Assembly (NCBI GenBank): GCA_017499595.2
Contig: CM039006.1
Location: 930,001 to 994,000 of the forward strand
DNA: 64,000 bases
DNA from: Psilocybe cubensis
Taxonomy: Eukaryota
Direction: 5' to 3'
Shown: positions 35,222 to 63,564 of the stretch, in pieces
How positions within the stretch are numbered: position 1 is the first letter of the stretch
Layout of the letters: each line of letters opens with the position of its first letter
The notes under the pieces: model-generated
Seen by the model: only the letters and a program-made list of their open reading frames with translations
What the model was told of the DNA's origin: nothing
Databases searched by the model: none
Translations under genes and position numbers: made by a program

Positions 35222-35867
35222 CCGTTGCAAGAGATGTAGTAGGTAGTAGTCAGTGTTTGACGGTACTGGTGTATTTATGCAGTGCGTAGGATGTGGCACA
35301 TATTTTCTACAGGAGATCGATTTTCATGCCACCCGACGTGTTTTTAGCTGTCACAAAAGCAATAGTCATAGTGTTTCCATGTAACACAAAGGAGATGGGT
35401 GGGTCAAAGCCATAATGCCAATCGTGTTAGCGCGCGTTTGCAAGATTGGCAAGGTTTTAGCAACTTCTCTCATGGTCCGTTACCAGTAAGCCAGTGTGAG
35501 ACGGTTTTCCCAGAGCGTGAGTTCTTCTCTCACTTCGGGCAGCTTTGGTGTATACATAGTAGAAAACCTCAGTCTTCGATGTTATCGGTTCGAAAAGACA
35601 ACATTAAGCAAACCAATGTCGATGAGCCAAGTATAGATGAACAATATAAATCCACTATCTGAGAGCGGCCAGAAAAGCGAGGCGAGACATTGAGTCAACT
35701 AGTCACAGGTGGCACAGGGTTTTGCACAGAGCAAGGTTAAATTGGTTTATGGAATTTTCCGAAATGTGACGACACGGATACACTGCAGGCTACGATACAT
35801 GTTTGATGTCAAACATCGACAATCAAACAGATATTATGTATGATGTAGATGTTTGATGTCACGCACA

Positions 35868-36413
35868 TATTGTGTTTGACAACAAACAGGCTTCAAACAT
35901 AAATTGTGTTTGAACTCTGTGTGACATCAAACACCAAATATGTTTGAGCACTGTTTGTTAAAAAATATTAGCCTGACATAATTCCTGTTTGAATAGCTGT
36001 ATGATAAGGTTCTGTAAGAGATCAACCAGATAATCCGTATCTTATCTAACATGAATATCAAACATACTTTATGTAAGCATTCAACCAGAATATTTGTCCG
36101 AAATCAAACAATTATCAAACATCCATTTTTTCTCGCATCTGATTGGTTCATACATATCTGTTTGGCAATCTGTTTGATTTCGGACAAATATTCTGGTTGA
36201 ATGCTTACATAAAATATGTTTGATATTCATGTTAGATAAGATACGGATTATCTGGTTGATCTCTTACAGAACCTTATCATACAGATATTCAAACAGGAAT
36301 TATGTCAGGCTAATATTTTTTAACAAACAGTGCTCAAACATATTTGGTGTTTAATGTCACACAGAGTTCAAACACAATTTATGTTTGAAGCCTGTTTGTT
36401 GTCAAACACAATA
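35868..36413. repeat. Long foldback inverted repeat / MITE-like element: 243-bp arms (35868-36110 and 36171-36413) with a 60-bp spacer
   Basis: The arms are reverse complements with about 3 mismatches by eye and are rich in TCAAACA/TGTTTGA. The outermost TA could be a TA target duplication. Confidence 0.9.
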
Positions 36414-36494
36414 CATCAACTAAACAGACAGTAGATTACAAAGCAATGTAATCCAATACAATATTTTTTTAGTCTTACAAACCCACCCAATTTT

Positions 36495-36812
36495 CACATA
36501 AGACAGTTTATTTATAACGTACATTACCTAAGATTTAATAATAAGGATATTACGTGACATACGGTGGATTTACTCCCGCTACCTAATTAGGAGATTAGCG
36601 TGATGTACGTGTGATTTAGCCTGGCAAATCATAGCGTACATGACGTGCCATTTAGCGCTAAATGGAGCCGCCGGGTGGCCTGCGGGATCCGCGCGTCTAC
36701 CTACACGGAAGAAACACGGGCCGGAAATGAGCCGGACGGGTCCATTTGCATCCCGTGTATTGCAAGCAGACGGATCCGCTTGACCCGTGTTGTGCTGTCA
36801 GACGGACCCATT
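36495..36812 (+). repeat. Left terminal inverted repeat of the KDZ element (318 bp)
   Basis: Reverse complement of 51746-52063; contains the perfect 18-bp palindrome CCATTTAGCGCTAAATGG (36648-36665). Confidence 0.95.
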
Positions 36813-36890
36813 TGACCCGTATCTTCCCAGAGAGGGAGGGATATTTGAGAGGTATTGCGAATCAATGAGCACAAGGGCTCCAAAAATAAT

Positions 36891-38176
36891 TTATTCATCT
36901 CTACCGGTATACAAATGCTTTTCCAAACTCGATTCAATCCCTGCCAGCCCAGCGTCAATTTCCTCCAGCGCATTATAAGTCAGAATTTCTGACTGCAGCT
37001 GATGCAGGCGGAGGTTCTTAAACGTTGTGACCTTGCTGTCATAACTATTGTCGCCGACGGAACTGTCGATTATTTGGTCGTATGTTGCCCGTAGCTGCTG
37101 CTCGGTATAATTCTAAAATAGTTGTCAGTATCTAGTGCTTGGTAATATCTGAGTGCATACATATAGAAAAGGAGGGTTAAAATATGCCGTCTGATCTGTC
37201 ACATCCTCGAACTCAATGTCAGACTGGGTGGGAGGCGAACCGGGGTAGCCGCCCATGGGATCAAACCTGCCGTAGGTTCGAAAATAAGGGTTTTGAAGGA
37301 GCAGGTGGCATGCTTCAGGGGGTGGAGAATAGCGACCTTGCTTCCTCTCAGAGGAAATAGCTGGACGAGAGTCCATAATGATTTTGTCGACGACAGACGT
37401 GTATGAAACATGTGCTGCCATCAACGGCGGAGCCACATCATCCCGGATGACAGGCATAGGTGGAGGATCCAGGGTATCTGGAATAACAGGCATAGGGGGA
37501 GGAGCCAGGGTAGGTGGAATGACAGGCATAGGGGGAGGAGCTAGGTTATCTGGAATGATTGGCATTGGCGGCGGAGCCGTGTCGTTCCGGATGACAGGCA
37601 TTGGCGGCGGAGCCGTGTCGTTCCGGATGACAGGCATTGGCGGCGGAGCCGTGTCATTCCGGATGACTGGCATTGGCGGCGGAGCCAGGTCTTTCCGGAT
37701 GACTGGCATAGGGGGCGGAGCCAGGTTAGCTGGAATAACAGGCATAGGGGGTGGAGCCAGGTTAGCTGGAATTACTGGCATTGGCGGCGGAGCCAGGTCT
37801 TTCCGGATGACTGGCATAGGGGGCGGAGCCAGGTTAGATGAAATGACTGGCATAGGGGGAGGAGCCAGGTTATCTGGAATAACAGGCATAGGGGGTGGAG
37901 CCAGGTTATCTGGAATGACTGGCATTGGCGGCGGAGCCAGGTCATCCGTCCTTGCTGTGCGTTTGCTTTCCTTAGAGTTGCTAATATTTGAAGACATTGC
38001 TGATGCTCAGAAATCAATTAAAATTTACTTGAATTAATGCCATTAGTCTTACATTTTATAGGTTTTACGGGAGGAGGTTCCTTCAGTTTTTCAAGAAGCC
38101 TGGTAAGATTGTTGAGACTGGTGTAGTCAATGGGGGAATTTTTGCTAGAGGTGGGAATAAAGTTGTAGGAGGACAT
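36891..38176 (-). CDS. KDZ-element accessory protein containing a 12-aa Pro-rich tandem repeat; probably 3 exons
   Basis: ORF 37125-37997 plus an upstream exon (MSSYNF..., ATG 38176) and a downstream exon (NYTEQQLRATYDQ...GRDE*, stop 36891), joined by GT-AG introns. Confidence 0.62.
37420..37948 (-). repeat. Coding 36-bp minisatellite (xxx[LT]APPPMPVI), 14 full copies plus 1 partial
   Basis: Counted from the translation of ORF 37125-37997. Confidence 0.92.
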
Positions 38177-38482
38177 ACAGTCCAGAAAGTGCAACTGGGT
38201 GGGCTTGTTTATATATCTCACGGAATACAATACTATCCGAGGATTCTCCATGACACGGAAATAGATTCACCCGTGTATCGAACTTAGCAACTTTTGCACA
38301 AACTGGATCTGGTGAAGAAATCACATGACTCAGATTGTACATGTTTGTGTATGGTTTTGTTTTGCGGGACCGCTTTTTTTTAGACTTTTTTTAGACTAAC
38401 TCCAACCACGATCACCACCCTCACGTTCTACCGTGCCTCACCACTTTAACGCGTCTTCCCCCATAAAAACACGCTTTTTTCA

Positions 38483-41053
38483 ATGGCCGCTTCATCTTCC
38501 ACCACCGCCACCTTCGCCCAACGCCTCGCTGACTGGGAAAAAAAGTTTACCGAGTGCTACCGCAACGGTGAAAGCGCGTTCAACGCTGAGTTGGAGCAGC
38601 TTTACAGGGACTTGGTAAGTTCTCAATTTTATAAGATCATGACTTGCTCAACAAAAAAAAAAAAATTCCAATAGGTTCCATTGTGTCAGGAGCATGTCAG
38701 GGACGCCGCACGCTTCCGGCTCATTGACTATGTTGCGAGCCCCGTTGTCTACTCGTACAAAGTCATCCAGGGCAAGGACGGCGAGAACATCTACAGGTTT
38801 GAGGTCGACTGGGCGACGCTCAAACATCAAGTCGCCAACTTCAAGGCCTACCAGGAAGGCCAGGAGGCACAGAGGAAGAGGAGGGAGGAGGAGGAGCAAG
38901 AGAAGAGGAGGGAGAAGGAGGAGCAAGAGGAGGAGGAGAGGCAGAGGGTGGAGGAGAGGAGGAAGAGGGAGGTGAGGAGGAAGAGGGAGGAGAAGAAGAA
39001 GAGGGAGGAGGAAGAGGAGAGGCAGAGGGAGGAGGAGGAGGAGAGGCAGAGGGAGGAGGAGAGGAGGAAGAGGGAGGAAGAGAAGCAGAAGGTGGAGGAG
39101 AGGAGAAAGGATGAGAGGAGGAAGAGGGAGCAGGAGAGGAGGACCAGGGAGCAGGAGAGGCAGAAGGCGGAGGAGAGGAGGAAGAGGGAGCAGGAGCAGG
39201 AGCAGGAGCAGGAGACAGACGAGGAGAGGAACAAGGAGGAGACGGAGAAGAGACGGGCCGAGAAGGGCAAGGGCAAGGCAGTCGAACCCCCGGTGGAAGA
39301 CGGACCCGTGACAGACGCCCACAAAGACAAGGGCAAACGGAAAGCGGCGGACCCCGTGGAGTCCATTCAGTTGGCTCCAGCGGATTACAGGGGCCCACGG
39401 ACAAAGAAGGGGGAAATTATTCCCCACATTACCGCCTCCAACATGCCCGGTCACCCAGCGTACAGGGAGAAGCTGGAAAGATTGGCGAAGTCCAAGCAGG
39501 GGAAATTCAGGAGCAAGGCGATCATAGGAAGCCACACGGACGAAGACGCGGACGCGGACGTCGACGAGGACGACGAAGGCGATAACAAAGGGGCACCGCC
39601 TACCACCCCCACTGCCACCCCCACCCGGAAGATGCGCACGCGTTCCGTAAAGAAGGACACCGAGGACGATGTCCCCCCCATCAGGAAGGCGCGGTCGAGA
39701 TCCCAGAAAGTGCGCCAGGTGCCAGAGGGGATGGTGGACATGGTGGAAAGGTGCACGGCATGCATCAAATTCAAGGTGCCATGCTATGTCAAGGGGGAGA
39801 CAGGCACTGAGCCTCTCGTCCCCGTGAAGCACCAATCTTGCGAGTCTTGCAAGTCTCGCAAGATCCACTGCAGCTTCTACCCGGGGCGCAACACCTTCGT
39901 GGGTCAATTTTTGACGACGCCACTGGGAAGCTATGGGGAGGCGTTGAAGTTGGAGGAGGGAGAAGATGTTCCGGCGAAGGGGAAGGCCGGGGAAGGGTCG
40001 TTCCCCGAGGATGTGGGAGAACTGCTTGTGCAGCTCTTTGAGCGCCAAGGCAGAATCATAGAACGGCTGGACGGGTTATCCGCGTCCATGACGGCGATTA
40101 ATGCACGGATTGCGACGTTTGCCGAGACGAACTTGGCGGTGGAGAACAGGATGAAGAGCATCGAGGACGGCATCCAAGAGGTGAAGGCCGAATGGACCAT
40201 GGCCAAAGAACAAGTGGCAGGAAGCACCTCGCTTTCCGTCACGATGTTCAACGACATCACCAAGAGGATCAACCACGTCCGAGATGTGGTCGACGATTTG
40301 CTGGAGCAGGATGAACAAAGGAATCCCGCCCCCAAACAGGCAGCAGGACCCTCCAAGACGGAGGTCGAACAAGAATCGGGTCCGTCGCGGACCCGTGAAC
40401 CCACCTCTGTGCCACAATCCCCAAGCGCACCACCACCGCCAGCACCCCTCCCTTCCCCACCTCCACCTCCAGCAGCACCCATTCTCCCTTCCCCTCCTCC
40501 ACCACCGCCAGCACCTGTCCTCCCTTCCCCTCCCCCACCTCCACCCGCACCCGTCCTCCCTGCCGTGTCTGCGCCACCAACAGCGCTATTCTTGCCCGGT
40601 TCGACTCCGGAAGCGCCTTCGCCCCCCCCAGCTGGCCGACCCTCGCTCCCACCGGTACCGCCCATCCTTTCCCTGTCTCCACCACCCCCTCTCCCAGCTC
40701 CACGTCCTCGAAGTTCGACGTCAAAGGCCGCACCGTTGTCAAAGGGTGCACCATCGTCAAAGGCCGCGCCATCGTCAAAGGCCGGCCCATCCTCAAAGGC
40801 TAAGCCATTGTCAAAGGCTAAGCCATCCTCCAAGGCTGGGCCATCCGGGAATGGACACTCATCGGAGTTGTCTGATCCCTCGGACAGCGACGAGGTTGAA
40901 ATTGTGGAGGAGGAGGATGTTGAGATCGTGGCGTCCACGCTGCCCGCGTCGAACATAGCCACAAAGACAAGGGCTGGACGAAAGCGAAAGGCGGAAACGA
41001 CTCTGGCTGAAGCATCGCGCTCGCCCAAAAAATCCAAGGCCCAAAAAAAGTAG
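38483..41053 (+). CDS. KDZ-element accessory protein: E/R/K charged helix, Zn2Cys6-like binuclear cluster, coiled coil, Pro-rich tail and basic NLS-like end; intron ~38614-38673
   Basis: CTAC-x6-C-x18-CESC-x6-C at 39752-39871; long EEER/RRKR tract at 38870-39250; C-terminal RKRK...KKSKAQKK. Confidence 0.75.
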
Positions 41054-41331
41054 TGTATTTCAATTCTTTGTAACTTTTTTTTGGTCTCCTTTTTTGCCTG
41101 TCATATATTACATTGCTCACATCCCTATACAATTTTTTCATCATTTGGACTGTATATAGTTTTTACTCTCATGTGCTCATCTGTTTTATACCTCTCCCAA
41201 AAAGTAGCACTTGATGATTTTTAATGAACCCCGCTTTCTGTTTTGATTTTGTGTGAAAACATGTTTGAGAAACATCAAGATAAGAATAAAAAGCATCACA
41301 TTCAATAGGTATCATGAATCTACTTCAACAG

Positions 41332-43642
41332 CTAGGCTTTCAAAGTTTTTTTTCTTTGTCTTTTACCTGCTACAGCAAGCAGACTTGCTTCCTGAAGTGC
41401 TAAGGCATCCGAAGTCACATTCCTGCGGGCCCGTGTTTCATCCGTATCTGGACTTGTTACTGTCTCCACAAAGGCATCACAAGTCACGTCCCTGCCGGCC
41501 CGTGTATTATCCGTGTCTTGGGTTGTTCCTGTTTGGACTCCATCTTCTTCCACTGTGTTAAGTGGATCTGAGTAGGGCTTTGTTCTTTTCCTAGGTTGAA
41601 TCCTTCTAGTTGGTTTTGGCTTAACTGGGGGGGGTACAGAACTCTCTTCATCGGGTCCGTCCATTTCCGCCGTTCCGACATATGGCTTTGTTCTTTTTCT
41701 TGGCATAATCTTTCTAGCTGGCTTGGGAGGCGCCTCCTCAACCTCTGGAGTTGGGCTGGATGATGGATTGACAATTGTTGGGCTGGATCTACTTGGTAGA
41801 GAGGGTGGCTCGCTAGATCTTGAAGGTGCGTCGGTAGGAGTCTCATCCGTCTCTGGCGTGACTTCAAATCTGGCAGTAGTGCGTGGCATCGCGGATGCCG
41901 GACTACCCCGTCCATTATCAAACTCTGACAGATTGGATGATTCAGAGTCGCTTGAAGATTGGGTTTGAAGTCGTATAGCTTTTTGCCTCAGCCGACGTTT
42001 GGTTATGGCTGCAGGAGGTGGAGGTATCGGGTGGGCTTCTAGGCCGTCAAACAAGTTGGACGGATAGAGAGGTTCCATAATGTCATAGCCATTTCCAAAA
42101 ACCTTTGAGAATTTAAAGGGGATGTCTCCTTGCGCTTGACGGTCCCTCCATAGCTTGAGAATTGCAGAAGTTGACTCCAGGCGGAGCCGGCTCGGATCCG
42201 TCACGGGGATTGAACTTGGCCAATACTCTGGATCAATCATTTCTGCAGAACGCCTTTCAAGAGCATCCCAAGGAACACTTGAACCAGGCCTATCCTTGGC
42301 TAAAGCTGTATACATAGTTAGCAAGTTTGTTGAGGACATAGACAAATTACACACCATAAACCTTGTTCATGTAAATTCTAATAATTGACTTTTGCGCATA
42401 AGCGACTTCTCTCCCAGTTGAGCCATAGATAGGACTAGGTACTATTGGAAATCCATTGCTGCTAAACTTGAGGGATTTTTCATGAAACGATGCATCTGGC
42501 AGTGCTGGATTGGCCACACCCTTCTCTATTTCTGAAATGTGGACGAGGTATTGAACAAACGCTCTGCGAAAAGCGGCCAACTCGGATGGAAAGAGTTGCC
42601 CAAAGGAAGGAATTCTGACATCGTCGAGTGCTAGATCGCTTGTCTGGGTCCTTCAATGCCCATCAGTCAACATTAATACGGGCCAAATTATTCCGCCGTG
42701 AATGCTTACGGCGGAAACTTTATCCGCCGTAGGGTGTTTACGGCGGATAAAGTTTCCGCCGTAAGCATTCACGGCGGAACTTGTTCATGCCGTGTTTAAC
42801 ACTTACATTGAGTATTCGATTTTACCCTCAATATCATAATGCCCCTCAAAGGTAATGGACCTCATACCCATTCTCTGCCACTTAAGTTTCTCCATTTGTC
42901 GAAGTATTTTTCTGCCTTGCCTGGCAGCAGTCCTGCAGATGTCAGATTGACGGCGGAAACAAGTTCCACCGACTCACTTTGCCTTCATTGATTTTGAAAC
43001 ACCTTTCTTATTCCATTCCTCGAGGATCTCCATGAACCTGTCCCGCTCCTCCTGAGTCAATCTGGCCTCAACCTGCTTACGTCCTTGTTGATAAAACTTC
43101 ATCCAATCTTTACTTCCACGAGCAGCATTCCCTGATAGAAGCGCAACCTCGGAGTCAATCTCTGCCGACTTCTCCTCACGGAATACCGTCTGAAAGGTTA
43201 TACGGGAGTTCAATCCTTCCAATTTTACACCAATTCGATTTGACGCATGGTTTCTAAACCAATTAAAAATTCGCTATTGTGATGGTTTATGTGTGTAACA
43301 AAATTTTCAAAGAAACAACGAGCTCACATGCTTCTTCACCTTCCATTCTTTGTGTAGTTGCTTATCTTCCTTCCTAGCACGTCTAGAGTATCTGTGATCC
43401 CATGTAGCTTGCAGCTCAGGTATGACAGTGTTCTGTATGTAGTCTGCTTTGGATGACTTTGATGTATCTTTGTAGGGCTGTACATGCTTTTTCAACACGC
43501 GCATTTCCTTTGTGGTCCATATATTTGATTCTTCCGGCGGAAAGTCACCCTCCGCCGTCTGTCCGCTTCTGGGTCCGTTGTGGGTTGTGGCATTTGCGGT
43601 AGAAGGAAGCGGATCCACGTCGGGGGATGCAATGGTGGGCAT
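41332..43642 (-). CDS. KDZ-element accessory protein with N-terminal HTH/Myb-like segment and a divergent HMG-box-like domain, multi-exon
   Basis: WTTKEMRVL...NWFRNH at the N-terminus; FQTVFREEKSAEI...WMKFYQQGRKQVEARLTQEERDRFMEILEEWNK resembles HMG-box helices. GT-AG introns join ORFs 43307-43642, 42974-43222, 42347-42580 and 41332-42357. Confidence 0.6.
42691..42779. repeat. Perfect 41-bp inverted repeat (7-nt loop) inside an intron of the HMG-like gene
   Basis: TTCCGCCGTGAATGCTTACGGCGGAAACTTTATCCGCCGTA, loop GGGTGTT, then the exact reverse complement. Confidence 0.93.
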
Positions 43643-44521
43643 AATTGCAGCGATGTAACAAGTAGCTTATCGATGAGTATCTGTGTGATCTAGTCAAATC
43701 TCACGTCATACGGAGATAAAATAAGCTTCCGATCATACTAAATGAATGATGTGATGTCATATTTTTCCCAATCAGGTAATCCCGCTTCATCGTCGGCCAC
43801 GATGATCAAAGCATGCTGGTCGCTGTCACATACATTGACCTCATGATTTTGCAATAGTTCCCTCTGCACTCAATCAATAAACATGAAATTTTGTAAACAT
43901 TTAGCGCTTTATATAAAGATAATCTTACAAGGTTTTAAATTCTTGTTAGATGGCTGTAAAGATACAGAAACACAAAATTCAAATTCACGTCTTCTCACCC
44001 AAAACTTGTGAAACCCAAAACGGCAGTCATCTCAGAGACCATGAGAGGTATTCAAATGCATAATTTTTTTCAAAAAATATAATGATCCCAGTGAGCTCAT
44101 TTTGACACATTTTCTAGTATATTGAGAATATCTCCTTAAATACGAGGATTCACATTCTACAAAAAATGTCATTCGGTAGCTATTAAAAATATCTTTCATA
44201 TGATATACGCCGGAGGAATGAGGGGCCAGCCAGTGAAAAGATATTTCAAAAACACTCCAAAGTGTGGTTCTGAAAGGGTCGTTCTGCATCATATTGTACA
44301 TTTATGATGGGATCACGTCCATTTTGTGCATCTCTGGATTAAGTTTTGTTCATAACATTTCACTCACTCATCCAAATATGCTGCAAGATAGATCATATGA
44401 AAGCTATTTTTCTCCTCTTTAAAACGGCATAATTGAGGGAAATTTATCTACAGAAATAAACATGTTATACTACATTTAGATCTGCGCTCACAGGCTGTCA
44501 GACTCTTTGTTTCCAACATCC

Positions 44522-47500
44522 ATGGGCTTCAAGAAAGTACCTGATAGGGGATCGGATGAGGAGTTTCCCAATGTTCGGGAGGCCTCCTGGTCTAGTGGGG
44601 CCAAGAAACGAAAGAGAGGGCGGCCGAGGATCCACAAACTTCCTGCAGAATCATCATCAACAAACCTCCCTCAAACAACGACTTACTCTTTCCAAAACCA
44701 TGAACACAACATTCTGGAAGAAGAAATACCTCATTATCCGGGAGATCTAACTGATCAGCAGGTACTTGATAACCTGAGACAGCTAGATGACGACAGAACG
44801 GGAGGAAAGGTATGTTTTAACATGTTTTCAGTAGAATGATCAGGATGACTTTACCTATCCAGTCTCAAAATGATTACCTGAGGGAATGGCTCCCGAAACG
44901 AGAGGTGTATCTTGGAACAATGATTGGAGGAGAAGCCCCGGATCCGGATCTGAATGGACGGTGTCAGCAATGTCAAGGAATGTCTGGAGTGTGGAGATGT
45001 TGCCAATGCTTTGGCTCTAGAATTTTGTGTTCTGAATGCCTGCGAAGAAACCATCAATTTACACCTTTCCACCGCGTTGAGAAGTGGACGGGTCTATATT
45101 TCCGTCCGGGAGCTCTGTGGGAAGTGGGTGTCAAGTTGTATTTGGGTCATAATGGGAAGCGGTGTCCTTATCCCACGGATCCGAGCCATCTAGGATGCGA
45201 CGGCGGAAACAATTCATCCGGGAGTCATGGGCACGGCGGAAACAATTCGCCCATCTTTGAGGATGAACACGGATTGGACCTGGATCCGCTTCCTGCGAGC
45301 AATGACCAAGAATCCTTTACGGCTCAGCTTCTGGCGGACCCGGAGGTACCCCATTTGGTTGAGCTGGACGATGGAGACGATGAAGATGATGATCTATTCG
45401 AGGAAGTCGATACAACCTATCTGGACCAACCTCGTCCAAAGGCAGCAGACAACAATGGAATTCCTTTCAAGGCAATTGTGCACACCTCCGGAGTCCATTA
45501 TCTGCCCGTGCGAACATGCACATGCCGGTCCGTCCGCCTTCCGTCTATCGATTTACAGTATCTGGAGATGGGATTATTTGCAGCCAGCTTTGAAAACGTT
45601 CAAACTGTGTTCACAGTTGAGGTCCTTGAGGACTTTCGGATGGACAACCTCGAGTGCAAAACGTCGGCTTATCAGTATTACCAAAAGTTGCGAAGACTGA
45701 CTTCGCCAGCGTTTCCAAAAAAGGTGCTGAACCGCTATCGTGAATTGAGAAGGCTTAGTAGAGAATACAGGGACCTTGTCCTGAGACGACAATACGGAGA
45801 AGGGCATACAAGAGAAGCGGTGGTCCCTTACTATCATCATTGCCATGATTCATCACCAGAGAGGATGGGTATTAATGTATCTGATCCAATTGACGGCGGA
45901 TCTGATAGTCCGTCTCAAGAAGTCGGAATGTCAACGGACCCGTCTCTGGGACACGGCGGATTAGATGGTCCGCCTGCACCACAAATGACGCGGACCGAGG
46001 ATCATCCCAAAGTTGAAGATAGGAGAGGGAAGTTGGCCTTATTCTGCCCCGCCTGTCCACAGCCTGGAATAAACCTACCTGATACCTGGATTGATGATGC
46101 TGACAGGCAAGTTTTAGTTATTCTTCAAGGGTGACTGCAATTAACAGCAAATAGCAATCTGTACATACGTAGTTATGTTGCAGATGGTAATTTCAAAGCA
46201 GATCACCTCAATCAGAAAAACGAGGGAGACGATGTTTGGTTGAGCGTTGGAGAAGGATACATGACTGCTCCGGGCCCATACAAGGAGCACATCAAGGAAG
46301 CAATTTCTCTTGCTCCACGTTATAAACGGGTGCGTTATCTACCATGATTTATCTTTCACGGCGGATGCTTACGTTCCGTGTCACAATCTTCCACGGCGGA
46401 TGCTTCCCTTCCGTGTCAAAAAAATCTTCCACGGCGGATGGCTTATCCTCCGTGTAAAAAAATATCAGGAACAAACATGTCATAACTACCACGCCCAGAA
46501 AGCTGAAAACAGAGTCAGCCCGGGTAAGAGAGTACGTGGAATTGGGGCACACGCTTGCGCTAGGCACGGATGCTTCTGTCCATCCAGCGTTGTCGATTTT
46601 GACAAAGGCGAAAAGCAGATGCACATGGATTGGTCTTTGACTCAGGCCAGGGAAACTACCAACACACAGGGAATCACAAAACATTTGGAAATCTACGATA
46701 TAAACTGTCAATATTGCGTTAACTTGGCAAGGCGTCTCTCAGAGTCCACAAAAATGCATTGGCCACCTTCTGTTAAAATGATTTTTGCAATTGGTTTATT
46801 TCACGTCCACGGGCACAAGACGGAATGTCTTTACAACTACGCATCCACCTATGTCCCGGGTGTGGGAATCATTGACGGAGAAATCCTGGAGCCGTTGTGG
46901 TCCGTGTTAAATGACACATCCCGGAGTACACGTTCCGCTACCACTGCCCATCGAGCAGAGGTTTTGGACGACCACATGGGGGATTCCAACTGGAAGAAGA
47001 CCATTAATATGGCTGCAACAATTGCTGCAAAGTTCAAACGGGCACGGGAACAGTCCGGAATCACAGACCGATTTTATAGGGGTATCACGGATCAACAAGA
47101 TTCCGGGCTCATCAACACTTGGGAAGATGAAATTTCAAAAGCAGAAGCGGACCGAGAACAAGGTGTGGCCGACGCTGTTGGCAAGGTAATGGCAAGCAAA
47201 GTGAAAACGGCTGCTGGACGCCAAGAAATTGAATTGCATCTTTCAAATATGGAACTTACATCTAATGGTGCTACTGGAAAGGCAGCATGGATATCATCCG
47301 GCTTAAAACTGGAGCAAGCGCAGTACGATTATTTCAATTGCATCCTACAGAATTTAACATGCTTTTAGATTGGAGCTCAGGGACCATGTCAGAAAGCTCG
47401 GAAAGCATCCTTCCACCGCGCAGAAACTTGACTTGGTCAATAAACGTCGCTCCATGCGGACCCGCGTTGAAGCCTTCTGTCGATCCGCTATGACCTTCAT

Positions 47501-48444
47501 GGGCGAAGATGTCTTGGAGGATATTCAAGGGGACATCGCTCCCATACTTGACTATGAAGTCAGTGACAACGACGATCCTGATCTTGGAAATGTCAACATT
47601 ACCCGCGCGGATCCGGAACGACAGCCGCTTCCGTTTCCCTCCGCCGTCAAACAAGATTTCTTTGACGGCCTTGACGCGGGAACAAACCTCATTTTAAAAG
47701 GGCTTCGCAAACTTGAACTTCAAATAAGACATGGCCACGCAGAGGACTGTCTGGAAGCGGTCCGGTCAGCCTTGATCCAGCTTTCTTGGCAGTATAAATA
47801 TCAGGTTCGGACCGCCGACTCCGTCTATATGGGGACTCGTGCTTGGGATGGCGTCAAGCTTTTGAATGCTTCCTGGAAATTGCACCGGCGACTCTACAAC
47901 ACAAACCGTCAGAAGATGATCTATTTATCTGCTGGCGTGCGAGACGAGGATAATATTCGGAAACAATATCCCATTCTGCAAGTCCATGATTGCAAGCATA
48001 GTAATGCCGTGTCGGATCCGAACATTCGCGGAGGAAGCTCGGACCGTCTAAGTTGGATTTGGAGATCCCGTCAGGGCCTGGACAATGATAATCAATTATA
48101 CGTTAATGAGTGTGAGTACTGCTATTTGTATTTCTAATTTTTTTCTCAAGGGCTTCTTAGTCTTTAGGCTAAACTGGCTCCGCGCGCGAGCTCAGAGGAA
48201 TAGATGGCAAGAGGAGCTGGCCTTGACAAAAAAGGAAATGGAATGGACTGTCAGATTTTATGTGTATATGGCAAAGACATGGCGTGCACGGCATGATTTT
48301 GTTCCTGACAGGTTAGTTGGTCACAGGGCAAATGCTCAAAAGCAGATTGCCATGTGGAATGATCTGGGGCGGGCCGCGGATAAGGTCTTCCGTCAAATTA
48401 ACCCGGAGTATCCGTCCGTGTGGAGATTTATAATTACAGATTAA
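44522..48444 (+). CDS. KDZ transposase with CxC2 cysteine cluster, about 6 exons, apparently intact
   Basis: N-terminal CQQC..WRCCQC..CSEC..H..PFHRVEKWTG; CxC2-type IVHTSGVH...CTC...TVFT; LALFCPACPQPGINLP; ADGNFK; CARHG; DFDKGEK; YDINCQ; FHVHGHKTEC; DGEILEPLWS; WLRARAQRNRWQEE. No stop codon after splicing. Confidence 0.92.
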
Positions 48445-48488
48445 CCAGTTCTTTGAACATTCTTGTTGTATCCCATCTCGTTGAATTC

Positions 48489-50113
48489 ATGCACTTACCG
48501 CGGCTTTTTACACCTCCTGTCGAGGACGAACATCATCTCCTTACCTATGATGAGCGACGTGCTCTGGCCAAAGTTCATGTCCATATTTGTGGTGCACGGA
48601 TCCGTGCCGGATACCGTTTGTTCATTGCAAACGGAGACTCTGTTTCCTCCGTGCGTCGCCAAAAATGGATGTATTTGCTCGACCTGGAGGTGGTAAGACA
48701 GTAATTTTGAACGATTATATCTTGTATTGAGAACTGGTCGTCAGGCTATACTGCTGAGAGTACTCGGATACTGCTATGTCAATGGATTCCAAGTCGATAT
48801 TCCATTTTTTATATCAGAAATTCTCAATCAGAGCGTACATGCCGTTTTGAACCGAACTCCCCACCATCGAGCTGTTCTATTTGAATCTCTAAATCAAAGC
48901 TGGTCAGCATGGGAAGATGATGAAATTTTAAATCAGACCAAGAGCTGGGGATATTGGTGGAGGGACGGATTTGCTGAAGGCGATGAGTGGCAAGTTGCCT
49001 TTGTTACCGTTGAATCGCAAGCAAGAGAATTTTGGAACAAGGTATGTTTTTTTATTGCTGTGGATTATATCTGATTTGCGTCCTTCCCACCAGGTGGTTC
49101 TGCCTGAATACCAACAAGAGGTACTCCGGCTAAATAATCAGAGGAAAGAAGCTAAGGAGGGCGCAAGTTCATCTACCTCTGGGCCTCCAAGAAATCAGGA
49201 AAACAATCCCAAGGGCAAGGGAAAGGCGGCTGAACGGACATCCGTCCCCATCTCGGGGAAGCACGGATCCGCGTTGACGGGAAAGCACGGCTCCGCGTTT
49301 TCACCGCCCACGGGGAAACCCAATCCGCCGACCCGTGTTGCAAACACGCGGGATGAAACATCCCCAATTGCAATTTCTGACCACAGACCGCCCTACTGTC
49401 CCCGCTGCGGTCAGCCTATCCTAACGGGCGTAATGAGGGAGTTGGCTCACCTGCGCCGGAATGTGGCGGACAAAATGAAAAATGCCCATAAAGCAGTGAC
49501 TACTTCTTCGGCCGCCTTGGGCAGATATTCTGTATTGGAGAAGATGTGGATTGACTCTAAGGAGCACCCGTTCTCTAACGGCAAGGGGCTTTCAGCCAAA
49601 TACAAATTTCAGCATCCCGTTCACCCTTCTCCTGACAGTTGGGGCGCTATAACGGCTCAAGCCTGGTCCTTCGAGGTCTCAAAGCTCAAAGTCGCTTCAT
49701 TTTACATCAACGACATTTTTTATTCTTTTATTGCCGTCAAGGAACTACCTTTTCATCCACTCTGGTATCATTCGCCACCCTCCAACACTGCAAATATTCA
49801 TCTCCCAACAGATACTCTGCCTACTCCCGGTTCCGTCAGCCCTCCGTCAAATGCACACACCAGCAATGCCTTCCTTTTTAACGCAAGGTCAAGACCTGTT
49901 TTCCCGGGAGAAGAGGATGATATTGATAGTACGTCCGATACCACTGAATCCTCTACACCAGCTACGTTTTTAGAGCATCTCGCACAGGACTTTGAAGAGG
50001 AGGCGGATGAGGAGTCTTCCGCCGGTGATACGACGGAGGAGTCAGATGCTTCCGGTAACTCGGAAGAGCTTAGCGAGGACGTGTCGGAAACACCCTGGGA
50101 TGAGGAATCTTAG
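48489..50113 (+). CDS. KDZ-element accessory protein of unknown function (multi-exon, CPRC motif, acidic tail)
   Basis: ORF pieces 48420-48704, 48727-49074 and 48971-50113 joined at GT-AG introns; no recognised domain. Confidence 0.55.
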
Positions 50114-50340
50114 TTGCCCACCTCTCGCACAGGACATCGAAGAGGAGGCGGATGATGCCTTTTCCGCCGGTAATACGACGGCGGAGTCCGATGATTCCGG
50201 TAACCTTGGAAGAGCTCAGCGCGGGCGCGTCGGAAACACCCTGGGACAGAGAATTCTGGTTGTTCTGTAGCTTTCGTACCGTTTTGTTTTGGAAATATAA
50301 AAAAATCTTCCCCAAACCCAACTTCCAAGTCAAAAACTGA

Positions 50341-51620
50341 TCATATTTCAAAATCAAAAGTGTTGGTGGCCGGTAAATTTGCAAAAAGATCGTACGTAGT
50401 AGACCATCCCGCCTCTTGGACTCCCAGCTCTTTAAATACATTCCTACGCATGTAATAGACTATGACTGCCCTATCTCCCTCGCACACCGCGCCGTGTTGA
50501 AGCAACCTGCCGGTAATTGCAACAAGGGTCATGGGATCATACTTGTACCAAAGTCCAAGGCCAGGAAGCTCAAGCCGTCCGTGTTCACCCTTCCCAAGTG
50601 GCATCAAAAAATCGTACCATGAGTAGCATGACCCATTATCCCGATGGTACGGTGTATCTCGGTTGCTGATGGCGGTCATGACTCCAAAGGGCGAACTCCA
50701 TATTGTGAGAATTTGCTTCAATATTTCGGCCTTATGGACGAACTCCGGTTCCGCAGCAAGCCGTTGAAGAAATTTTATTCCCGCCCGGTACTGCTCGGGG
50801 TGTATAATGCTCAAGATGGCTCCCAGCAAAGCCGAAGATGTCATCATGTCTCGTATAAACTCCTGTCCAATAGGATTACACAAGTCCAAGGAGACCTCAA
50901 GCGGGTTGGACGTCTGAGGAAAATATGAGGCAGTATAATACTTAGCAAACAAGTTTCTCACCTCATGGCCTTGCTGAAACCATGCCGGGGAAAAGTTAAG
51001 ATTTCCAGGTTGAAGCCAACCTGGCTCATGTCGAAAGTAACTGTCATTGACCCTCCAGCTTGTGGCCAAAGGTGCCGCCTTGTGAATCATTGTTTCAATA
51101 TCCCGTAATGAATTCCACACACTCTCCTGTTACTCTTTAGAACGCATAATATAGGAATTAATCGGTCCGTTTCTAAAACTCACCACCCTTGTCTCTGACA
51201 AAATACCTGGCAGGTACCACACCAATATGTTGCCTGCACTATCGATTACAGTTCCGGGCAGGGTTTGGTACTGTAACGTGGAATGCACCGGAGGAAACTG
51301 GTCTTTCAGGCGAGCCTCAACGGCAGAATTCTGACCCGTGCAACGTGCGCTGAGATGGGTCAAATATTCTTCTGCATCCCACGTCGTATATTCTGCCATT
51401 CACACATTATTTAATCTCAATTTTCAAAGCTTATTGATTGCATACCTTGATTTTCAATTGCCTGCAAAATCACCTCCACAGCTAGATTGCACTCAAACAT
51501 GGTCTCAGCACTGAAGTTTTCCCGGATTTGATTAGGCAGTTCTGCATGCCAAAGACAACTAGCTATCTTTGCCTTCATGTAGTTTGAGAGGGATTGGGTT
51601 AGCTCAAAGGCATAATCCAT
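50341..51620 (-). CDS. TET/JBP-family 2-oxoglutarate/Fe(II) DNA dioxygenase, 4 exons
   Basis: PGTVIDSAGNILVWYLPG and NFSPAWFQQGH, then the catalytic HxD (NRDTPYHRD), the distal H (LLQHGAV) and the 2OG-binding R (DRAVIVYYMR). This matches the fungal TET/JBP genes associated with KDZ elements. Confidence 0.9.
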
Positions 51621-51745
51621 ACTATCAGGGTATGTGGAAAGGAATTTGCTGCCAGTATAATCTATACACCTTATTACATATATTAACGGTCATCCAATGT
51701 ACGATTCAAGGCGGATATTTGTCGGAATACAGAAGCGGATGGATG

Positions 51746-52063
51746 AATGGGTCCGTCTGACAGCACAACACGGGTCAAGCGGATCCGTCTGCTTGCAATA
51801 CACGGGATGCAAATGGACCCGTCCGGCTCATTTCCGGCCCGTGTTTCTTCCGTGTAGGTAGACGCGCGGATCCCGCAGGCCACCCGGCGGCTCCATTTAG
51901 CGCTAAATGGCACGTCATGTACGCTATGATTTGCCAGGCTAAATCACACGTACATCACGCTAATCTTCTAATTAGGTAGCGGGAGTAAATCCACCGTATG
52001 TCACGTAATATCCTTATTATTAAATCTTAGGTAATGTACGTTATAAATAAACTGTCTTATGTG
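51746..52063 (-). repeat. Right terminal inverted repeat of the KDZ element (318 bp)
   Basis: Reverse complement of 36495-36812. Confidence 0.95.
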
Positions 52064-52543
52064 CAATTTTCGGGGCCCGGTTTACAATGTTAAGCAATAT
52101 TTTTATTAGCTTTAAAATGTCCAAACAATTATTGGTTCACCAATGCAAATTCAAGTAATAATTTTCGTATGTTTATAATAAGTCCGGTTGACCGGCCATT
52201 ACATAACCGGGCGACATAGGGGCCGTATGTCTTGGCCCGGCGCGTGTGTTAAATATAACATACGATCGCTCAAACAAAGTTCCAATCACGGTAAGCGTTA
52301 TATTTCTCTACGTATACATGTAATAACTACATTAATCCGTTCAAAATTTGTCGATATCGAGCTCATCGTCGACGACGATGACCAAAACGGGCGTGGAAAA
52401 GCGCGCCGCAGTCGTCAATGATGGCCGCGCGTGCTTCTTTTCAACTACCACCACCACCACTACCACCACCAAACCCGCCACAGCGCGCCAGCGAGTCACC
52501 ACTGCATTCTAACGGCATAACAAGAGTTAACGGAAGACGACAA

Positions 52544-52938
52544 ATGGATGAGCAAGGTGAGTCTTCAATATTCAATGTAAGTACTTACTGTTAATTTTTT
52601 TTGCACTCCCAGGAGTACAATTCGGCCTCGTGATTGATCGCGACGGCCTCAGGCTCAACGTCGCCGTCGATGGCCACAACGGGCACACCAAAATCGGCGT
52701 CAACGTCGATACCGACAACAAGGTCGAAATCGTTTTCAGCGTCGAAGAGCCCGCGAACGGGCGAGTCGACACCGACCCTGTCGCTTTGACCAACGACCAA
52801 CTTATTCGAGAGGGGCAGGAAGCTGGGCAGCCGGTAGTTGTTGTTGCAAATTGTATCAAGGCATCGAGGACCGTTGAAGGCAGCGACGTCGAGATGCGCG
52901 ATGGGGAGGGGGATGATCAGGACGTCGAGATAGAGTAA
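52544..52938 (+). CDS. Small acidic, beta-strand-rich hypothetical protein (2 exons) within the TE island
   Basis: ATG GAT GAG CAA G|GTGAGT...CCCAG|GA splices in frame into ORF 52630-52938. Confidence 0.5.
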
Positions 52939-53092
52939 AGGGTCCGTTGTACAACCATGAAATATCATTTTATTTTTCCAAATCTACTCTTGTGAATACA
53001 ACACACGTTTAAACAGACTGGGGAGAGCCATTATAACCCCGCGCGTCCTCCTTCGATATGTTCTGTACACTCTGCCAGGCCTTCAACGGACT

Positions 53093-53256: not shown

Positions 53257-53993
53257 TATCCGTTTCCACTCCCCCTATATTCATGAGAAGGCGACAAAGA
53301 CATGTCGCCAAACTCTGAATAGTGAGGATGTGGGGGTGGGGACACATATGACCTTGTCCTGTAGTTCAGGTTTGGGGTTGAAGGAGGAGGCGGAAACTGT
53401 GATTGAGGGACTGGGTACGCGTACGCGTGTGGATATTGTTAGAAAGTATGCGGATGTGAATGCGATGGATTGTGGTGACTCGAGTGCGAGTTTGGTTGAG
53501 AGTACGAATGCGAATATAGGGATGTTACAATAAAATTTCAGTTAAATATCAATACATTTCCTTACCGAATCACGCAAAAATCAAGAAAAAATTTGTGTAT
53601 TACTCGCCCAGACAAGGATACATCTAAAAAGGTGTTAGTAGAGGTACAAGAGAATTCACGACAGACTCACATGAAGGTACAGTTAGTATTCAGCGAACCC
53701 GAGTTCATCGAGGTTGTCAGGGTACGTATTGGTGCCACCCCTATCCGTTATCGTTATCTGTTACGGTCCCACGCTGTCATGCCTTGTTCTATCTTTGTGT
53801 TCGGTCCCACGTCTATCGTTCTCCTGTTTCATCTATTGATAGTTGTTATATGTCGAGTACTCTGGTCCGGGAAGTAGTTACTCCGGTCTCCATGTATATA
53901 TAGGGTCCTGGGGTCAGTAGTCAGTCCCCAGCTTCGATATCAACTTGGTCTTTGGGCACTCTTCTCTCTTGACTTAAGTCGATTCCTAACAGC

Positions 53994-54979: not shown

Positions 54980-57900
54980 AGACCAGGTCGTTGGGACACC
55001 GACCTTTAGAGGGGAGGTGATGTCAGGGTACGTATTGGTGCCACCCCTATCCGTTATCGTTATCTGTTACGGTCCCACGCTGTCATGCCTTGTTCTATCT
55101 TTGTGTTTGGTCCCACGTCTATCGTTCTCCTGTTTCATCTATTGATAGTTGTTATATGTCGAGTACTCTGGTCCGGGAAGTAGTTACTCCGGTCTCCATG
55201 TATATATAGGGTCCTGGGGTCAGTAGTCAGTCCCCAGCTTCGATATCAACTTGGTCTTTGGGCACTCTTCTCTCTTGACTTAAGTCGATTCCTAACAGAG
55301 GTCACCCCGGTTCTCATCCTCGTTGCTTTCCTCCTCCTCCTCCTCCTCCTCTTCAGAATCAGTATGCTGGTTGCTGTCGTCTTCATTGTCATCAGAATCG
55401 GAGCTGTTTTCAGGTGCCACTTCAGCCTGGTCCTGAGCGTCTTGCTCCTGGTCTGAGGCCCCATCTGGTTTCAGATCAGGATTAGGAGCTTCATGTGCCT
55501 CGCGGCATTTTTTGCGAGAGGCAATGTCATCTGCACGTCGGTCTTGCCTAAGAGAATCGGTAGCGGCTCGCGTGCTAGCGTGGCCAACTCCACCCCCTCT
55601 GTACAGCATGACCATGTCGCAATCCACAAAACTGTAAAAAATTAGTAAAGGGTAAGAAGTGACTAAATGTACTCACAAATTGACATAATATCTCTCCCAT
55701 TCTTCCCCTTCATTATTTTCTTTGCTTCTATAAGCTACAGATGGGCCGAGAGTCGGTATTTTTCTAAGAATGAAGCGAGGGATCAAATGGGTTGCACGAA
55801 TTACGAGGGATGGGTCCACAAAACCAAATGACGCAGAGTCATTGATATCACCAAACGCCAACTGTGGAAGCCTTCTATATTTCCAACCGTAATGGCAATC
55901 TTCACAAACACCCAGCCATCGGACATGAAGAAAATCCACTTTGTGCTTGGAGGCACAGTAGTAATCATCAGGGGTAGATATTACCACATTGGCGTGGTAG
56001 ATTCCAATGATACGGGCATACCAATAAGGATGAACCTGCTGATCTGCACCTTTGTTGCTAGCGAGTACCATGATGTCACATCGGGAAGAGTTTGGCTTCA
56101 AGGTATCTTGTATTCGACGCATATCATAGGAAGTATAGTTGATGCGTAGAACCTGATGTTCGTAAATTCGGTCACCGAGTATTGTGATTTGGAGTCGCTC
56201 ATGGGTACCAATGCTATCACTGAATTCGTTTACCCCTGATAAGCGGGCATAAAGGTGAGTTTTGAGACGAAGCATAAAGTCCTAAATACGACATTGAGTA
56301 TATAAAAACAAGCGAAAAATCCGGCTTACCCTTGTTGCCGGATCGTTTTGGTTTTGTGACATCCAGGGTAGTATATCTAACTTTTGACGCACGTCTGATG
56401 AGATGTGATAATGTAAATCAGGAGGAGTGGGCTCCAGTAACTCCCTGTCCTCACGCAGCAGCTTGCGTATCTCGACACGGTTAGTGCGGTGTACCACACG
56501 TTCTCGGTAGATGTGTTTGGCGATACCTCGAATATGATCACCTTTCTTGACCCGTTTGTAGAAGAGTTTCGCTCTCTTGTGCTCGCTTTTGCCCATCTGA
56601 GTGCTCGTGCCGTCAGTGGTGCCAAATTGGCAAATGGAATCGACGTAATCGGGAAGGGAATGCAATTTGTACGTTTGCATATTGAACGTGCGGGTCTTGG
56701 GTTCATTGGGTTGAGTCGGAGGTACTGGCAGACCCGCACTCGCTGCCTTTTTGGCCTTGGCTGCCTGTCTTTTTCCTCTCGCGGCTGTTTCTGATGGAAG
56801 CTCGCGAGTGGTGTACTGAATACAAACCTCCTTTTGGAACTGACGAAGGAGATCACATAACCGAGTACACAAATTCCCCAACTCGTCCAGAGTGGTATCG
56901 GTGTGAAGTCGAAGCTTGGCTAGGGCGTGCCATGTCGCCATTTCAAACAAGAGGTTTTGAATAATTTTATTGTGTGCAGGTTCTGGCAACAAGCCCTCAA
57001 AGACTGGTATAGAGCACTATTATGGAATCATTAATAATTAAAATCAAACATCACACGCAATTGAGGCCTACCTGAAGGAGATCTTCAAAATCCCGTGCTG
57101 CCAGTTTCTTCATATCTGAAGCATTCCTAGCAAAACGTCGGATAGTTGTGAGGCCGAAAGGGGAGACTTGGCGGTATCTAAATCTATAGTTAGTTTGAGT
57201 AAGAATCGAGATATCACGACAATACCTTTCGTTCAGAGTTGCAATGGCGTTCTGGTTGCTAGAGGTATAAAGAATCCGGAGTAGGTGACTAAATAGGGCC
57301 TTCCAGACACCCAGTTCCACTTCGTGCATGAAGTCGACAGTAAACATCCGATAAAAGTTGAAGCCATATTCAAATAAAGCCTTGGAAAAAGCGTTCTATG
57401 TAATATTCTTAGACAAAATACGTAGATATGAGGAAATAAAAATATACCCGAGTTGGAAAAGCAGAGGTCTGTTGCAGCAAGCCATTAACCGCCTTGCTGT
57501 TAACCTTTTTCCCCAAGAATAATGCTTTACGGGCAGTTTCTATGTCAAATTGACGAGTTTCGCTGTCAACGCAAGCTAGCTTGAGCCGGTTTCGCATATC
57601 CATCTTTGATCCAACCTTTGGGACATTCATAGTCTGAATTAAACAACGTGGACACAAGCAAGTGCCACGACACTTGCAGCAGGACTGCAGCATTCTGCTT
57701 GTACATTAGTTATCAATCGAAATAGCGAGTAGATGTTGACTTACTTTTCGGGGTAGTCATTTGAACTAAAAATAAAACGGAGATACATAGCTCGACATAC
57801 TCTGTCGGCCAGTTCTACGGCCTCTCCTTCAGCATACGCTCGTTTGACATCCTCATCAAGTAATAGCCCCCAGACGCCTGTATTGACCTCGCGTCTCATA

Positions 57901-59460: not shown

Positions 59461-59753
59461 CCACGCAATGAGCCTGGATAGGGAGTAGAAAATCCTTGCC
59501 CAAGCAATGAGCCTGGGCAGAGTAACGATACCCTTATCCCAGCAATGAGCCTGGATAGGGGGGATATCCTTGCCCAAGCAATGAGCCTGGGCAGGCGAAC
59601 GACACTCTTATCCCAGCAATGAGCCTGGATAGGGGGTAGAAAATCCTTGTCCTAGCAATGAGCCTGGACAGTGGATAGGAAGCTCTTATCCCGGCAATGA
59701 GCCTGGATAGCGAGCCATCGATTCGTTCTGACCCAAGCAATGAGCCTGGGTAG
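59461..59753. repeat. Array of 8 GCAATGAGCCTGG-core palindromic units (~36-44 bp spacing) directly upstream of the Plavaka ATG
   Basis: Cores at approximately 59466, 59504, 59542, 59578, 59616, 59655, 59693 and 59737. Confidence 0.9.
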
Positions 59754-63200: not shown

Positions 63201-63237
63201 AGTCAGGGGAGCAGGAATTCCAATTTATCTGTGCGTA

Positions 63238-63433
63238 CTGCCCTGGCAATGAGCCTGGGTAGTTTAAGCGTTCTGCCCTAGCAATGAGCCTGGGTAGTTT
63301 ATGAGTTCTGCCCAAGCAATGAGCCTGGGTAGTGTCTCGCGTTCTGCCCTAGCAATGAGCCTGGGTAGGTTGCGCGTACTGCCCGAGCAATGAGCCTGGG
63401 TAGTGAGGCTGCCCGAGCAATGAGCCTGGGTAG
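63238..63433. repeat. Second array of 6 CTGCCCnAGCAATGAGCCTGGGTAG units upstream of the 60-63 kb gene
   Basis: Same core as the 59.5-kb array, with short variable linkers. Confidence 0.9.
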
Positions 63434-63564
63434 CGAAGAAGAACCAATGACGCAGGAACGTGTTGAGATCACCACGCGTGTCGGAGTTTGAAATTGCCAT
63501 CAGGCGGAATCTGAATTTGGGTAGGGTTCCGTTTGTTGGCTCTGTTGACTTCCGCACCACTACC

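Follow-up and report, generated by a model that had tools for sequence, protein, structure and literature searches.

A probable Kyakuja-type KDZ transposon of Psilocybe cubensis with long terminal inverted repeats, a TET/JBP dioxygenase gene, and four accessory genes

Results

Organization of the element

We analyzed a 64,000-nucleotide (nt) stretch of Psilocybe cubensis DNA (GenBank assembly GCA_017499595.2, contig CM039006.1, positions 930,001 to 994,000 of the forward strand), which we call the window and in which position 1 is the first letter. Window positions 36495-52063 hold an element of 15,569 bp that encodes a KDZ transposase, a TET/JBP dioxygenase, and four further proteins (from genes A to D). 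We consider it likely that the element belongs to a young, multicopy family of Kyakuja-type KDZ DNA transposons in this fungus and is probably autonomous. An earlier reading of the sequence alone (the original prediction) had recognized a KDZ transposon here and credited it with a six-gene cargo; six genes are indeed present, of which only four are accessory, the transposase and TET genes being the other two. The features of the element are as follows.

36488..36494, no strand: left target site duplication (TSD) copy, CAATTTT; empty-site joints retain one copy
36495..36812, plus strand: left terminal inverted repeat (TIR), 318 bp, beginning CACATAAGACAG; observed/expected (o/e) CpG ratio, 1.31
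36735..36814, plus strand: three subterminal direct repeats, GACGGRYCCRYTTG, starting at 36735, 36769, and 36801, with two mirrored copies in the right TIR (51776 and 51810)
37125..37997, minus strand: gene A, a single open reading frame (ORF) from the first ATG for a proline-repeat protein of about 290 amino acids (aa); 3′ end predicted
38484..41053, plus strand: gene B, predicted 836 aa from the ATG at 38484; exon 1, 38484-38615; intron, 38616-38674; exon 2, 38675-41053
41332..43642, minus strand: gene C, 668 aa, modeled by homology; five exons, 43642-43328, 43273-42978, 42932-42807, 42650-42355, and 42305-41332
42691..42779, no strand: perfect hairpin of TCCGCCGT/ACGGCGGA units with 41-bp arms, within gene C intron 3; DNA folding energy, -56.7 kcal/mol; z, -15.3
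44522..48444, plus strand: KDZ transposase gene, predicted 1,197 aa, from Pfam CxC2 and KDZ matches, frame reading, and an annotated model; six exons, 44522-44809, 44863-46130, 46173-46329, 46469-47322, 47369-48111, and 48161-48444; all five introns GT..AG
48489..50113, plus strand: gene D, 492 aa, modeled by homology; exons 48489-48650, 48745-49041, and 49094-50113
50341..51399, minus strand: TET/JBP dioxygenase gene, at least 333 aa, from Pfam and a CcTet alignment; exons 51399-51184 and 51126-50341
51746..52063, minus strand: right TIR, 318 bp, finishing CTGTCTTATGTG, from repeat comparison
52064..52070, no strand: right TSD copy, CAATTTT, from repeat comparison

The raw repeat search returned one long inverted pair (36489-36812 and 51746-52069). 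Comparing the ends base by base refined this to two TIRs of 318 bp with a single mismatch (36591 G versus 51967), without inward extension and flanked by the 7-bp TSD, as the original prediction had described them. The tips read CACATAAG...CTTATGTG, that is, 5′-CA..TG-3′. The 14-bp pattern GACGGRYCCRYTTG has five matches against 0.33 expected, every one within the TIRs, a count that is post hoc because the pattern was taken from the same sequence; these subterminal repeats are candidate protein-binding sites. Three DNA runs (X1, X5, and X14) were aligned to window positions 35500-53000; a fourth run, possibly of RNA (X16), contributed no contigs there. The TIRs occur in a second length in some X14 copies, in which 64 bp of both TIRs (36650-36715 and 51843-51908) is swapped for 6 nt, AATAAC, mirrored as GTTATT.

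The genes lie in the order A(-) B(+) C(-) KDZ(+) D(+) TET(-). The two divergent pairs that had been predicted, A/B and C/KDZ, are found, and there are two convergent pairs (B/C and D/TET) rather than one. Rfam and tRNA scans of the element gave no match. The CpG o/e ratio is 0.82 for the element, 1.31 for the TIR, and 0.44 for the decayed repeat that surrounds them; the mild depletion of the element beside a host repeat at 0.44 is compatible with youth, with protection, or with both.

Transposase and dioxygenase

The predicted transposase starts with a Cys cluster that matches CxC2 (PF18803; E, 1.4e-21; 77.1 bits against a cutoff of 27), followed by a KDZ core (PF18758; E, 7.6e-38; 130.8 bits against a cutoff of 26.6; profile positions 49-217). 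The first part of this core, on the DGNF exon (46173-46329), lies outside the Pfam match and was recovered from frame reading. KDZ cores are marked by the acidic and histidine motifs DGNF, YD, HxHxH, and DGE. The spliced model runs uninterrupted through 1,197 aa, with DGNF at 523, IYDINC at 646, HVHGH at 683, and IDGE at 706, so the motifs given beforehand as DGNF/YD/HxxxH/DGE are all kept in the predicted protein. Its predicted introns measure 53, 42, 139, 46, and 49 nt. An annotated P. cubensis protein, JR316_0009745 (1,559 aa), has the same junctions for introns 1, 2, 4, and 5; it omits part of the catalytic core and takes in gene D by way of an intron of some 25 nt.

The dioxygenase matches nearly the whole Tet_JBP profile (PF12851; E, 1.5e-18; 67 bits against a cutoff of 34.9; profile positions 3-163 of 164). 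Its best relative among solved structures is CcTet (7vpn), to which the large exon aligns over residues 200-418 (E, 9.6e-26) and the upstream exon over residues 79-146 (E, 8.9e-5). In TET/JBP dioxygenases the HxD...H residues are iron ligands, and the arginine binds 2-oxoglutarate. These residues were expected to be retained here, and HRD, H, and R do fall in register with CcTet ("pyhrdng"/"pihrdts", "lqhga"/"lvhgv", and "ravivyymr"/"rycmahfwr"). A minus-strand ORF within 51417-51689 may possibly supply an extra 5′ exon.

Two introns of the element share a repeated motif. Besides the hairpin in intron 3 of gene C, TCCGCCGT/ACGGCGGA units occur three times in tandem in intron 3 of the transposase gene (46357-46438). 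Both places vary between copies, with a 63-bp indel at the hairpin (joints 42690->42754 and 42707->42771) and a 39-bp indel at the tandem units. The motif CACGGCGGA is found 7 times in the window, with 0.27 expected, always inside 42692-46438.

Empty sites and the flanking repeat

The original prediction had named the string that an empty site should show, and this string was found in all three DNA runs. The joint 36487->52064 skips 15576 bases, equal to 15,569 + 7, and leaves a single CAATTTT; it is present in one X1 contig, one X5 contig, and 261 raw X14 reads (133+128, with 108 start places). These sites establish the exact ends of the element and the 7-bp duplication, not its allelic absence. 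Joint depth is far above that of unique sequence (272.8 versus about 11 in X5; 261 reads versus about 31-35x in X14), and X14 reads diverge into other sequence at 35781, 36414, and 52109; from both observations we conclude that the flank is multicopy. Because the flanks 35781-36494 and 52064-52109 are thus repeated, we regard the empty sites as probable paralogues, which most likely represent further copies of the flanking repeat. We therefore rejected an allelic reading of them, since the joint depth and the loose ends show repeated host sequence.

The host sequence on both sides (35781-36494 and 52064-52109) is AT rich, with 32% GC, a CpG o/e of 0.44, and a TpG/CpA o/e of 1.66, and it holds a foldback with 243-nt arms (35868-36110 and 36171-36413; 99% complementary). 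The element is inserted into one copy of this small decayed repeat. Further insertion sites are indicated at the left tip, where 202+285 X14 reads and four X5 contigs end loosely at 36494/36495 and run into several different outside sequences (consensus agreement in X14, 0.37-0.39); such heterogeneous reads point to other insertion sites sharing the same terminus.

Copy number and comobility of the six genes

Over 36668-51851, X14 read depth is about 480-620, low-complexity bins (part of gene B) excepted. Unique depth in this run is 31 at position 35538, and the 1,632 M letters of the run, spread across a genome of some 40-47 Mb, correspond to about 35-41x. Comparing the element depth with a unique depth of about 31-41x gives about 13-19 copies at ≥90% identity, an estimate that comes from X14 raw reads alone, the contig word depths of X1 and X5 not being copy numbers. 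An estimate from the right flank was dropped, as the bin 52436-53000 (142x) is already above unique depth. Many copies are closely alike: 33,028 of the 59,945 aligned X14 reads are ≥99% alike to the present copy, and gene C falls in a 90% cluster of 22 members, of which the 15 listed bear 16 distinct JR316 locus tags (at least 16 annotated loci). Pairwise protein identity between gene C copies is 97.5-99.9%, and 11 of the 15 listed are full length (668 aa).

Several observations bear on whether the accessory genes belong to the element. X14 reads cover all six genes evenly. Colinear contigs from X1 and X5 link gene C to the transposase gene (3,503 nt, 5 differences) and gene D to the TET gene (2,166 nt, 4 differences), and they also span the B/C junction. 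Among 12 tagged copies of gene B, 8 have gene C at a neighboring locus tag on the same scaffold (7 scaffolds), 2 have it at a distance of 3-4 tags, and 2 have no C among the listed members; gene D is two tags from gene C in one annotated copy. Finally, 12 of 24 indels between copies include 8 that would shift a reading frame, and all 8 lie outside coding sequence (intergenic, in transposase intron 1, or in a TIR or flank); within coding sequence, the 12 include two, of +6 and -3 nt, which both fall in gene B. Taken together, even depth, colinear contigs, tag adjacency, and indels that spare coding sequence lead us to conclude that the four accessory genes are real and move with the element; their co-occurrence elsewhere, including in other strains, is in keeping with what the original prediction implied.

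Accessory genes

Gene C offers the most to work with. Its product agrees at 663 of 668 residues with JR316_0010149 and consists of a folded region (residues 40-430) followed by a disordered tail. Searching with a family profile that includes a 49% identical paralogue, we obtained 447 cluster representatives at E≤1e-3, of which 75 reach E≤1e-10. All 10 representatives that we looked up are hypothetical proteins of Agaricales, from Flammula, Agrocybe, Galerina, Crepidotus, Hebeloma, Cyclocybe, Gymnopilus, and Psilocybe. Neither the gene C protein itself (P0004) has a Pfam hit nor do ten long family members match a Pfam family at E≤0.001. A metagenome scan for relatives gave one contig of 2,374 bp (L001; 31% identity), too short for neighbors, whose 6 other ORFs match no Pfam family. 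P. cubensis has a second gene C lineage (P0005 and P0181-P0183), 49% identical over the first ~343 residues; as it has several annotated copies, it suggests a second related element family in this fungus.

An AlphaFold 2 (AF2) model of gene C, built on a 35-member alignment, has a predicted local distance difference test score (pLDDT) of >90 over residues 40-430. Foldseek with this model found nothing at E≤0.001; GTF2I came up with probability 0.77-0.80 and E of at least 1.0. A structural search (VIA-align) placed residues 297-431 on GTF2I (Z, 7.2 with a root mean square deviation of 3.6 over 89/90 residues, and 6.6) and residues 121-212 on about a dozen HMG boxes (Z, 4.5-5.4), in both cases under the level that excludes chance; residues 40-120 weakly resemble homeodomain-like helices. 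Within the 35-member family, Pfam GTF2I matches 6 members (best E, 0.013), HMG_box_2 matches 4 (best E, 4.3e-4), and HMG_box matches 1. When the family profile was run against the PDB, 3 of the 9 hits were GTF2I chains (E, 0.35-1.9). On these models and profiles, gene C probably encodes a DNA-binding protein, which we do not assign to the HMG or the GTF2I family. The "HMG-like" label that it had been given is a weak one: HMG_box_2 matches 4 of its 35 relatives, the fold comparison stays at Z of 4.5-5.4, and the protein itself has no Pfam hit.

Gene A is the proline-repeat protein that had been predicted: it has 14 tandem 12-aa units with the core LAPPPMPVI. Variability among the units by codon position is 0.107/0.095/0.286, and this concentration at the third position argues that the frame is coding. 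Its length differs between copies in 36-nt steps. It has no Pfam match, and the exact protein is absent from the protein collection searched.

Gene B should encode a charged coiled coil, a Cys cluster (CX2CX6C-X18-CX2CX6C), a long helix, Pro-rich repeats, and a basic tail. It matches no Pfam family, and no relatives beyond P. cubensis were found: its homologues, 3 of 3 hits, are P. cubensis proteins at 100, 88, and 80% identity. The cluster had been called Zn2Cys6-like. The cysteine spacing is there, and Zn_clus (PF00172) scores below its cutoff of 21 with the 88% paralogue (P0002; E, 0.35; 11.5 bits); the X18 linker is longer than the usual Zn2Cys6 linker. A single-sequence AF2 model of the segment reached a mean pLDDT of 57.6, and its Foldseek list was meaningless. 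The Atlas linked residues 380-640 only to unnamed clusters from Basidiomycota (scores, 0.83-0.85), which we take as leads and no more. From the unit structure of A and the indels of B, genes A and B appear to be under coding constraint.

Gene D, whose product was rightly listed as an unknown protein, shares 486 of 492 residues with A0A8H7XJY8 of P. cubensis. It matches no Pfam family, has no usable Atlas match, and gave no relatives outside P. cubensis. Its ATG is 44 nt past the transposase stop, on the same strand and in a different frame. In an 82-nt duplication with 88% identity (49978-50059 and 50123-50204), the sequence coding for the acidic C terminus of gene D recurs just past its stop codon.

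Discussion

The ends, the TSD, the CxC2-KDZ transposase, the linked TET gene, and the number of closely similar copies all point to a young Kyakuja-type family, of which the present element is one apparently complete member. Based on what is understood of its family, we imagine that the DDE-type transposase would bind the TIRs, perhaps at the 14-bp subterminal repeats, excise the element, and paste it elsewhere by way of a 7-bp staggered cut, and that the CcTET-like dioxygenase would oxidize 5-methylcytosine (5mC), perhaps also N6-methyladenine (6mA). Genes A, B, and D would be lineage-restricted passengers or helpers.

A number of points weigh against this reading. The gene models were predicted from sequence and annotated proteins, not from RNA, and transposase intron 2, at 42 nt, is very short. 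The Kyakuja assignment comes from TSD, termini, and TET linkage, not from a transposase tree. With the empty sites probably paralogous, the data examined contain no transposition event and no allelic presence or absence. Minor X14 copies are damaged: 27 reads show a TET gene that lacks 994 bp, and 30 reads show a transposase gene with a 42-nt skip and one inserted base. X14 variants include 313 C>T/G>A changes against 165 T>C/A>G, an excess from which some copies may decay under methylation despite the TET gene. We do not claim a CpG-specific decay signature, as CpG accounts for just 3 of the 9 C>T/G>A sites displayed. As to gene C, its fold and profile signals are all below threshold (Z, <8; Pfam E, ≥4e-4; Foldseek E, ≥0.34), and its linkage to KDZ genes is known from P. 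cubensis alone.

How far is this element new? In 2025, Kojima published complete TET-carrying Kyakuja elements from five orders of Agaricomycotina that end in CA..TG and are flanked by 7-bp TSDs (PMC12730594), and therefore the main idea is already known. The original prediction was right that the TET-KDZ linkage is known, and it understated the published record in that complete TET+ Kyakuja elements were already there (PMC12730594). The shared traits are a KDZ transposase and a TET/JBP gene in one TSD-bounded unit, a 7-bp TSD, CA..TG termini, and an Agaricales host; the present TET, being close to CcTET, corresponds to the "AG type" of that paper (PMC12730594). Two differences stand out. The Laccaria bicolor elements Kyakuja-1_LB and Kyakuja-2_LB are said to have "no TIRs" (PMC12730594), whereas the present element has near-perfect TIRs of 318 bp, and the "no TIRs" of the Laccaria elements is probably a descriptive rather than a defining trait. 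The main text of PMC12730594 also gives no extra genes for TET+ Kyakuja, whereas the present element has four, one of them from a family conserved in Agaricales. That main text makes no mention of Psilocybe, and the supplementary tables may list similar families (PMC12730594). Our literature search found no description of the long TIRs together with the accessory set. What is new here is a Psilocybe member of the TET+ Kyakuja group with long TIRs and an accessory gene set.

Other systems are instructive for particular parts of the element. The Coprinopsis cinerea protein CcTET and the Kyakuja-linked expansion of TET/JBP genes were reportedly described by Iyer et al. and by Chavez et al. in 2014. 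CcTET and the present TET have in common the linkage to a KDZ transposase and the aligned HRD, H, and R; CcTET has 430 aa, against about 333 aa modeled here, its N-terminal ~78 residues are unmatched, and the present TET is known from sequence alone. The giant KDZ1-3 elements of Cryptococcus are mobile and 9-11 kb long, with TIRs of 139-241 bp and few copies per genome (PMC11343200, PMC12810828). They resemble the present element in size class, long TIRs, a CxC-KDZ transposase, and extra genes for unknown products, and are described as members of the Dileera clade with CxC1, 4-8-bp TSDs, and no TET (PMC11343200, PMC12810828). The present element, in contrast, has CxC2, a TSD of 7 bp, and a TET gene, and it is present in more copies.

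A current idea is that TET-carrying transposons counter methylation-based silencing. The TET of this element might, in cis or genome-wide, weaken such silencing of the element through oxidation of 5mC (perhaps 6mA), a role for which we regard the case as evenly poised. CcTET oxidizes 5mC and possibly 6mA, and the anti-silencing role of TET in transposons is called not experimentally validated (both in section 4.2 of PMC12730594).

The accessory set had been taken for a dedicated targeting or anti-silencing module. That description runs ahead of the observations, since only gene C gives a functional hint, in its weak DNA-binding-like folds. We see a less than even chance that gene C encodes a DNA-binding protein assisting the element, much as a second protein accompanies the transposase in Harbinger-type transposons. 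Harbinger-type Nuwa families encode a second protein with Myb/SANT (PMC12730594, section 3.1.4). The analogy, a working one only, is that one element holds both a transposase gene and a second gene whose product is a putative DNA-binding protein; the difference is that the transposase superfamilies are unrelated and that gene C has no Myb/SANT domain. A bolder version, which we think has a rather small chance of being right, would make gene C an unrecognized third core component of Kyakuja across Agaricales, an HMG-like/GTF2I-like protein that recognizes the 14-bp or TCCGCCGT repeats of the element and brings in the transposase, the TET, or both. If so, the element would carry a self-targeted module for demethylation and transposition, not a free-acting TET.

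The four accessory genes might instead be passengers captured once, as Pack-type or Starship-like cargo, with no part in transposition or escape from silencing. Genes A, B, and D do lack a Pfam family, B and D lack relatives beyond P. cubensis, and the Atlas gave nothing usable; Cryptococcus KDZ1 also bears two genes for unknown products (PMC11343200), and the main text of PMC12730594 gives no further Kyakuja proteins. The frames, however, are open in most copies, indels between copies spare the coding frames, and the repeat units of gene A vary in a synonymous manner. A gene C family present in at least eight Agaricales genera, together with the 49% identical second lineage in P. cubensis, goes beyond a one-off capture. 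On balance, we find the passenger explanation unlikely.

It is also conceivable that the family is now inactive, having amplified recently and left silenced relics that decay at fixed sites. No new insertion was seen, the excess of C>T/G>A (313 versus 165) would fit, and so would the minor copies with deletions in the TET and transposase genes. Against this, a single mismatch separates the two 318-bp TIRs, none of the six frames is broken, CpG depletion is mild (0.82), more than half of the aligned X14 reads (33,028/59,945) are ≥99% alike to the present copy, and gene C copies are 97.5-99.9% identical. We are therefore doubtful that the family is inactive. The suggestion that the element is possibly still mobile fits the near identity of its TIRs, its open frames, and the many copies with protein identity of 97.5-99.9%, although no transposition event was seen. 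Finally, that gene D is the C-terminal part of the transposase, leaving five genes in the element, is quite improbable: the two lie 44 nt apart on one strand and JR316_0009745 (1,559 aa) merges them, but the merger needs an intron of ~25 nt, which we judge too short to be real, the frames differ, and two other annotated models have a separate 492-aa protein.

If the element is, as we favor, one copy of a young and probably autonomous family, then P. cubensis offers a clean test object, with exact ends, open frames, near-identical copies, defined cotraveling genes, and a culturable host. Such a system could address whether a TET protects its own element and which genes are needed for movement. 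Among the cotraveling genes, the chief interest is the wider linkage of gene C to KDZ elements; a further question is whether relatives of the animal-type GTF2I fold exist in fungal mobile DNA.

Other features of the window

Left of the element are ordinary-looking host genes, encoding a ZZ zinc finger with DUF7514 (10322-11599), a C2H2/CEP104-type zinc finger (16466-17524), and an AAA_12 helicase domain (19356-20387). About 6 kb to its right, an ORF on the minus strand (58009-59607) has a Plavaka transposase domain (PF18759; E, 2.7e-9) and marks an unrelated DNA transposon. Two direct repeats of 278 nt, 100% identical and with starts 1,306 nt apart, lie at 53715-53992 and 55021-55298. Arrays of short repeats with the common core GCAATGAGCCTGG (families D4-D6 and D8) occupy 59458-59710 and 63233-64000.

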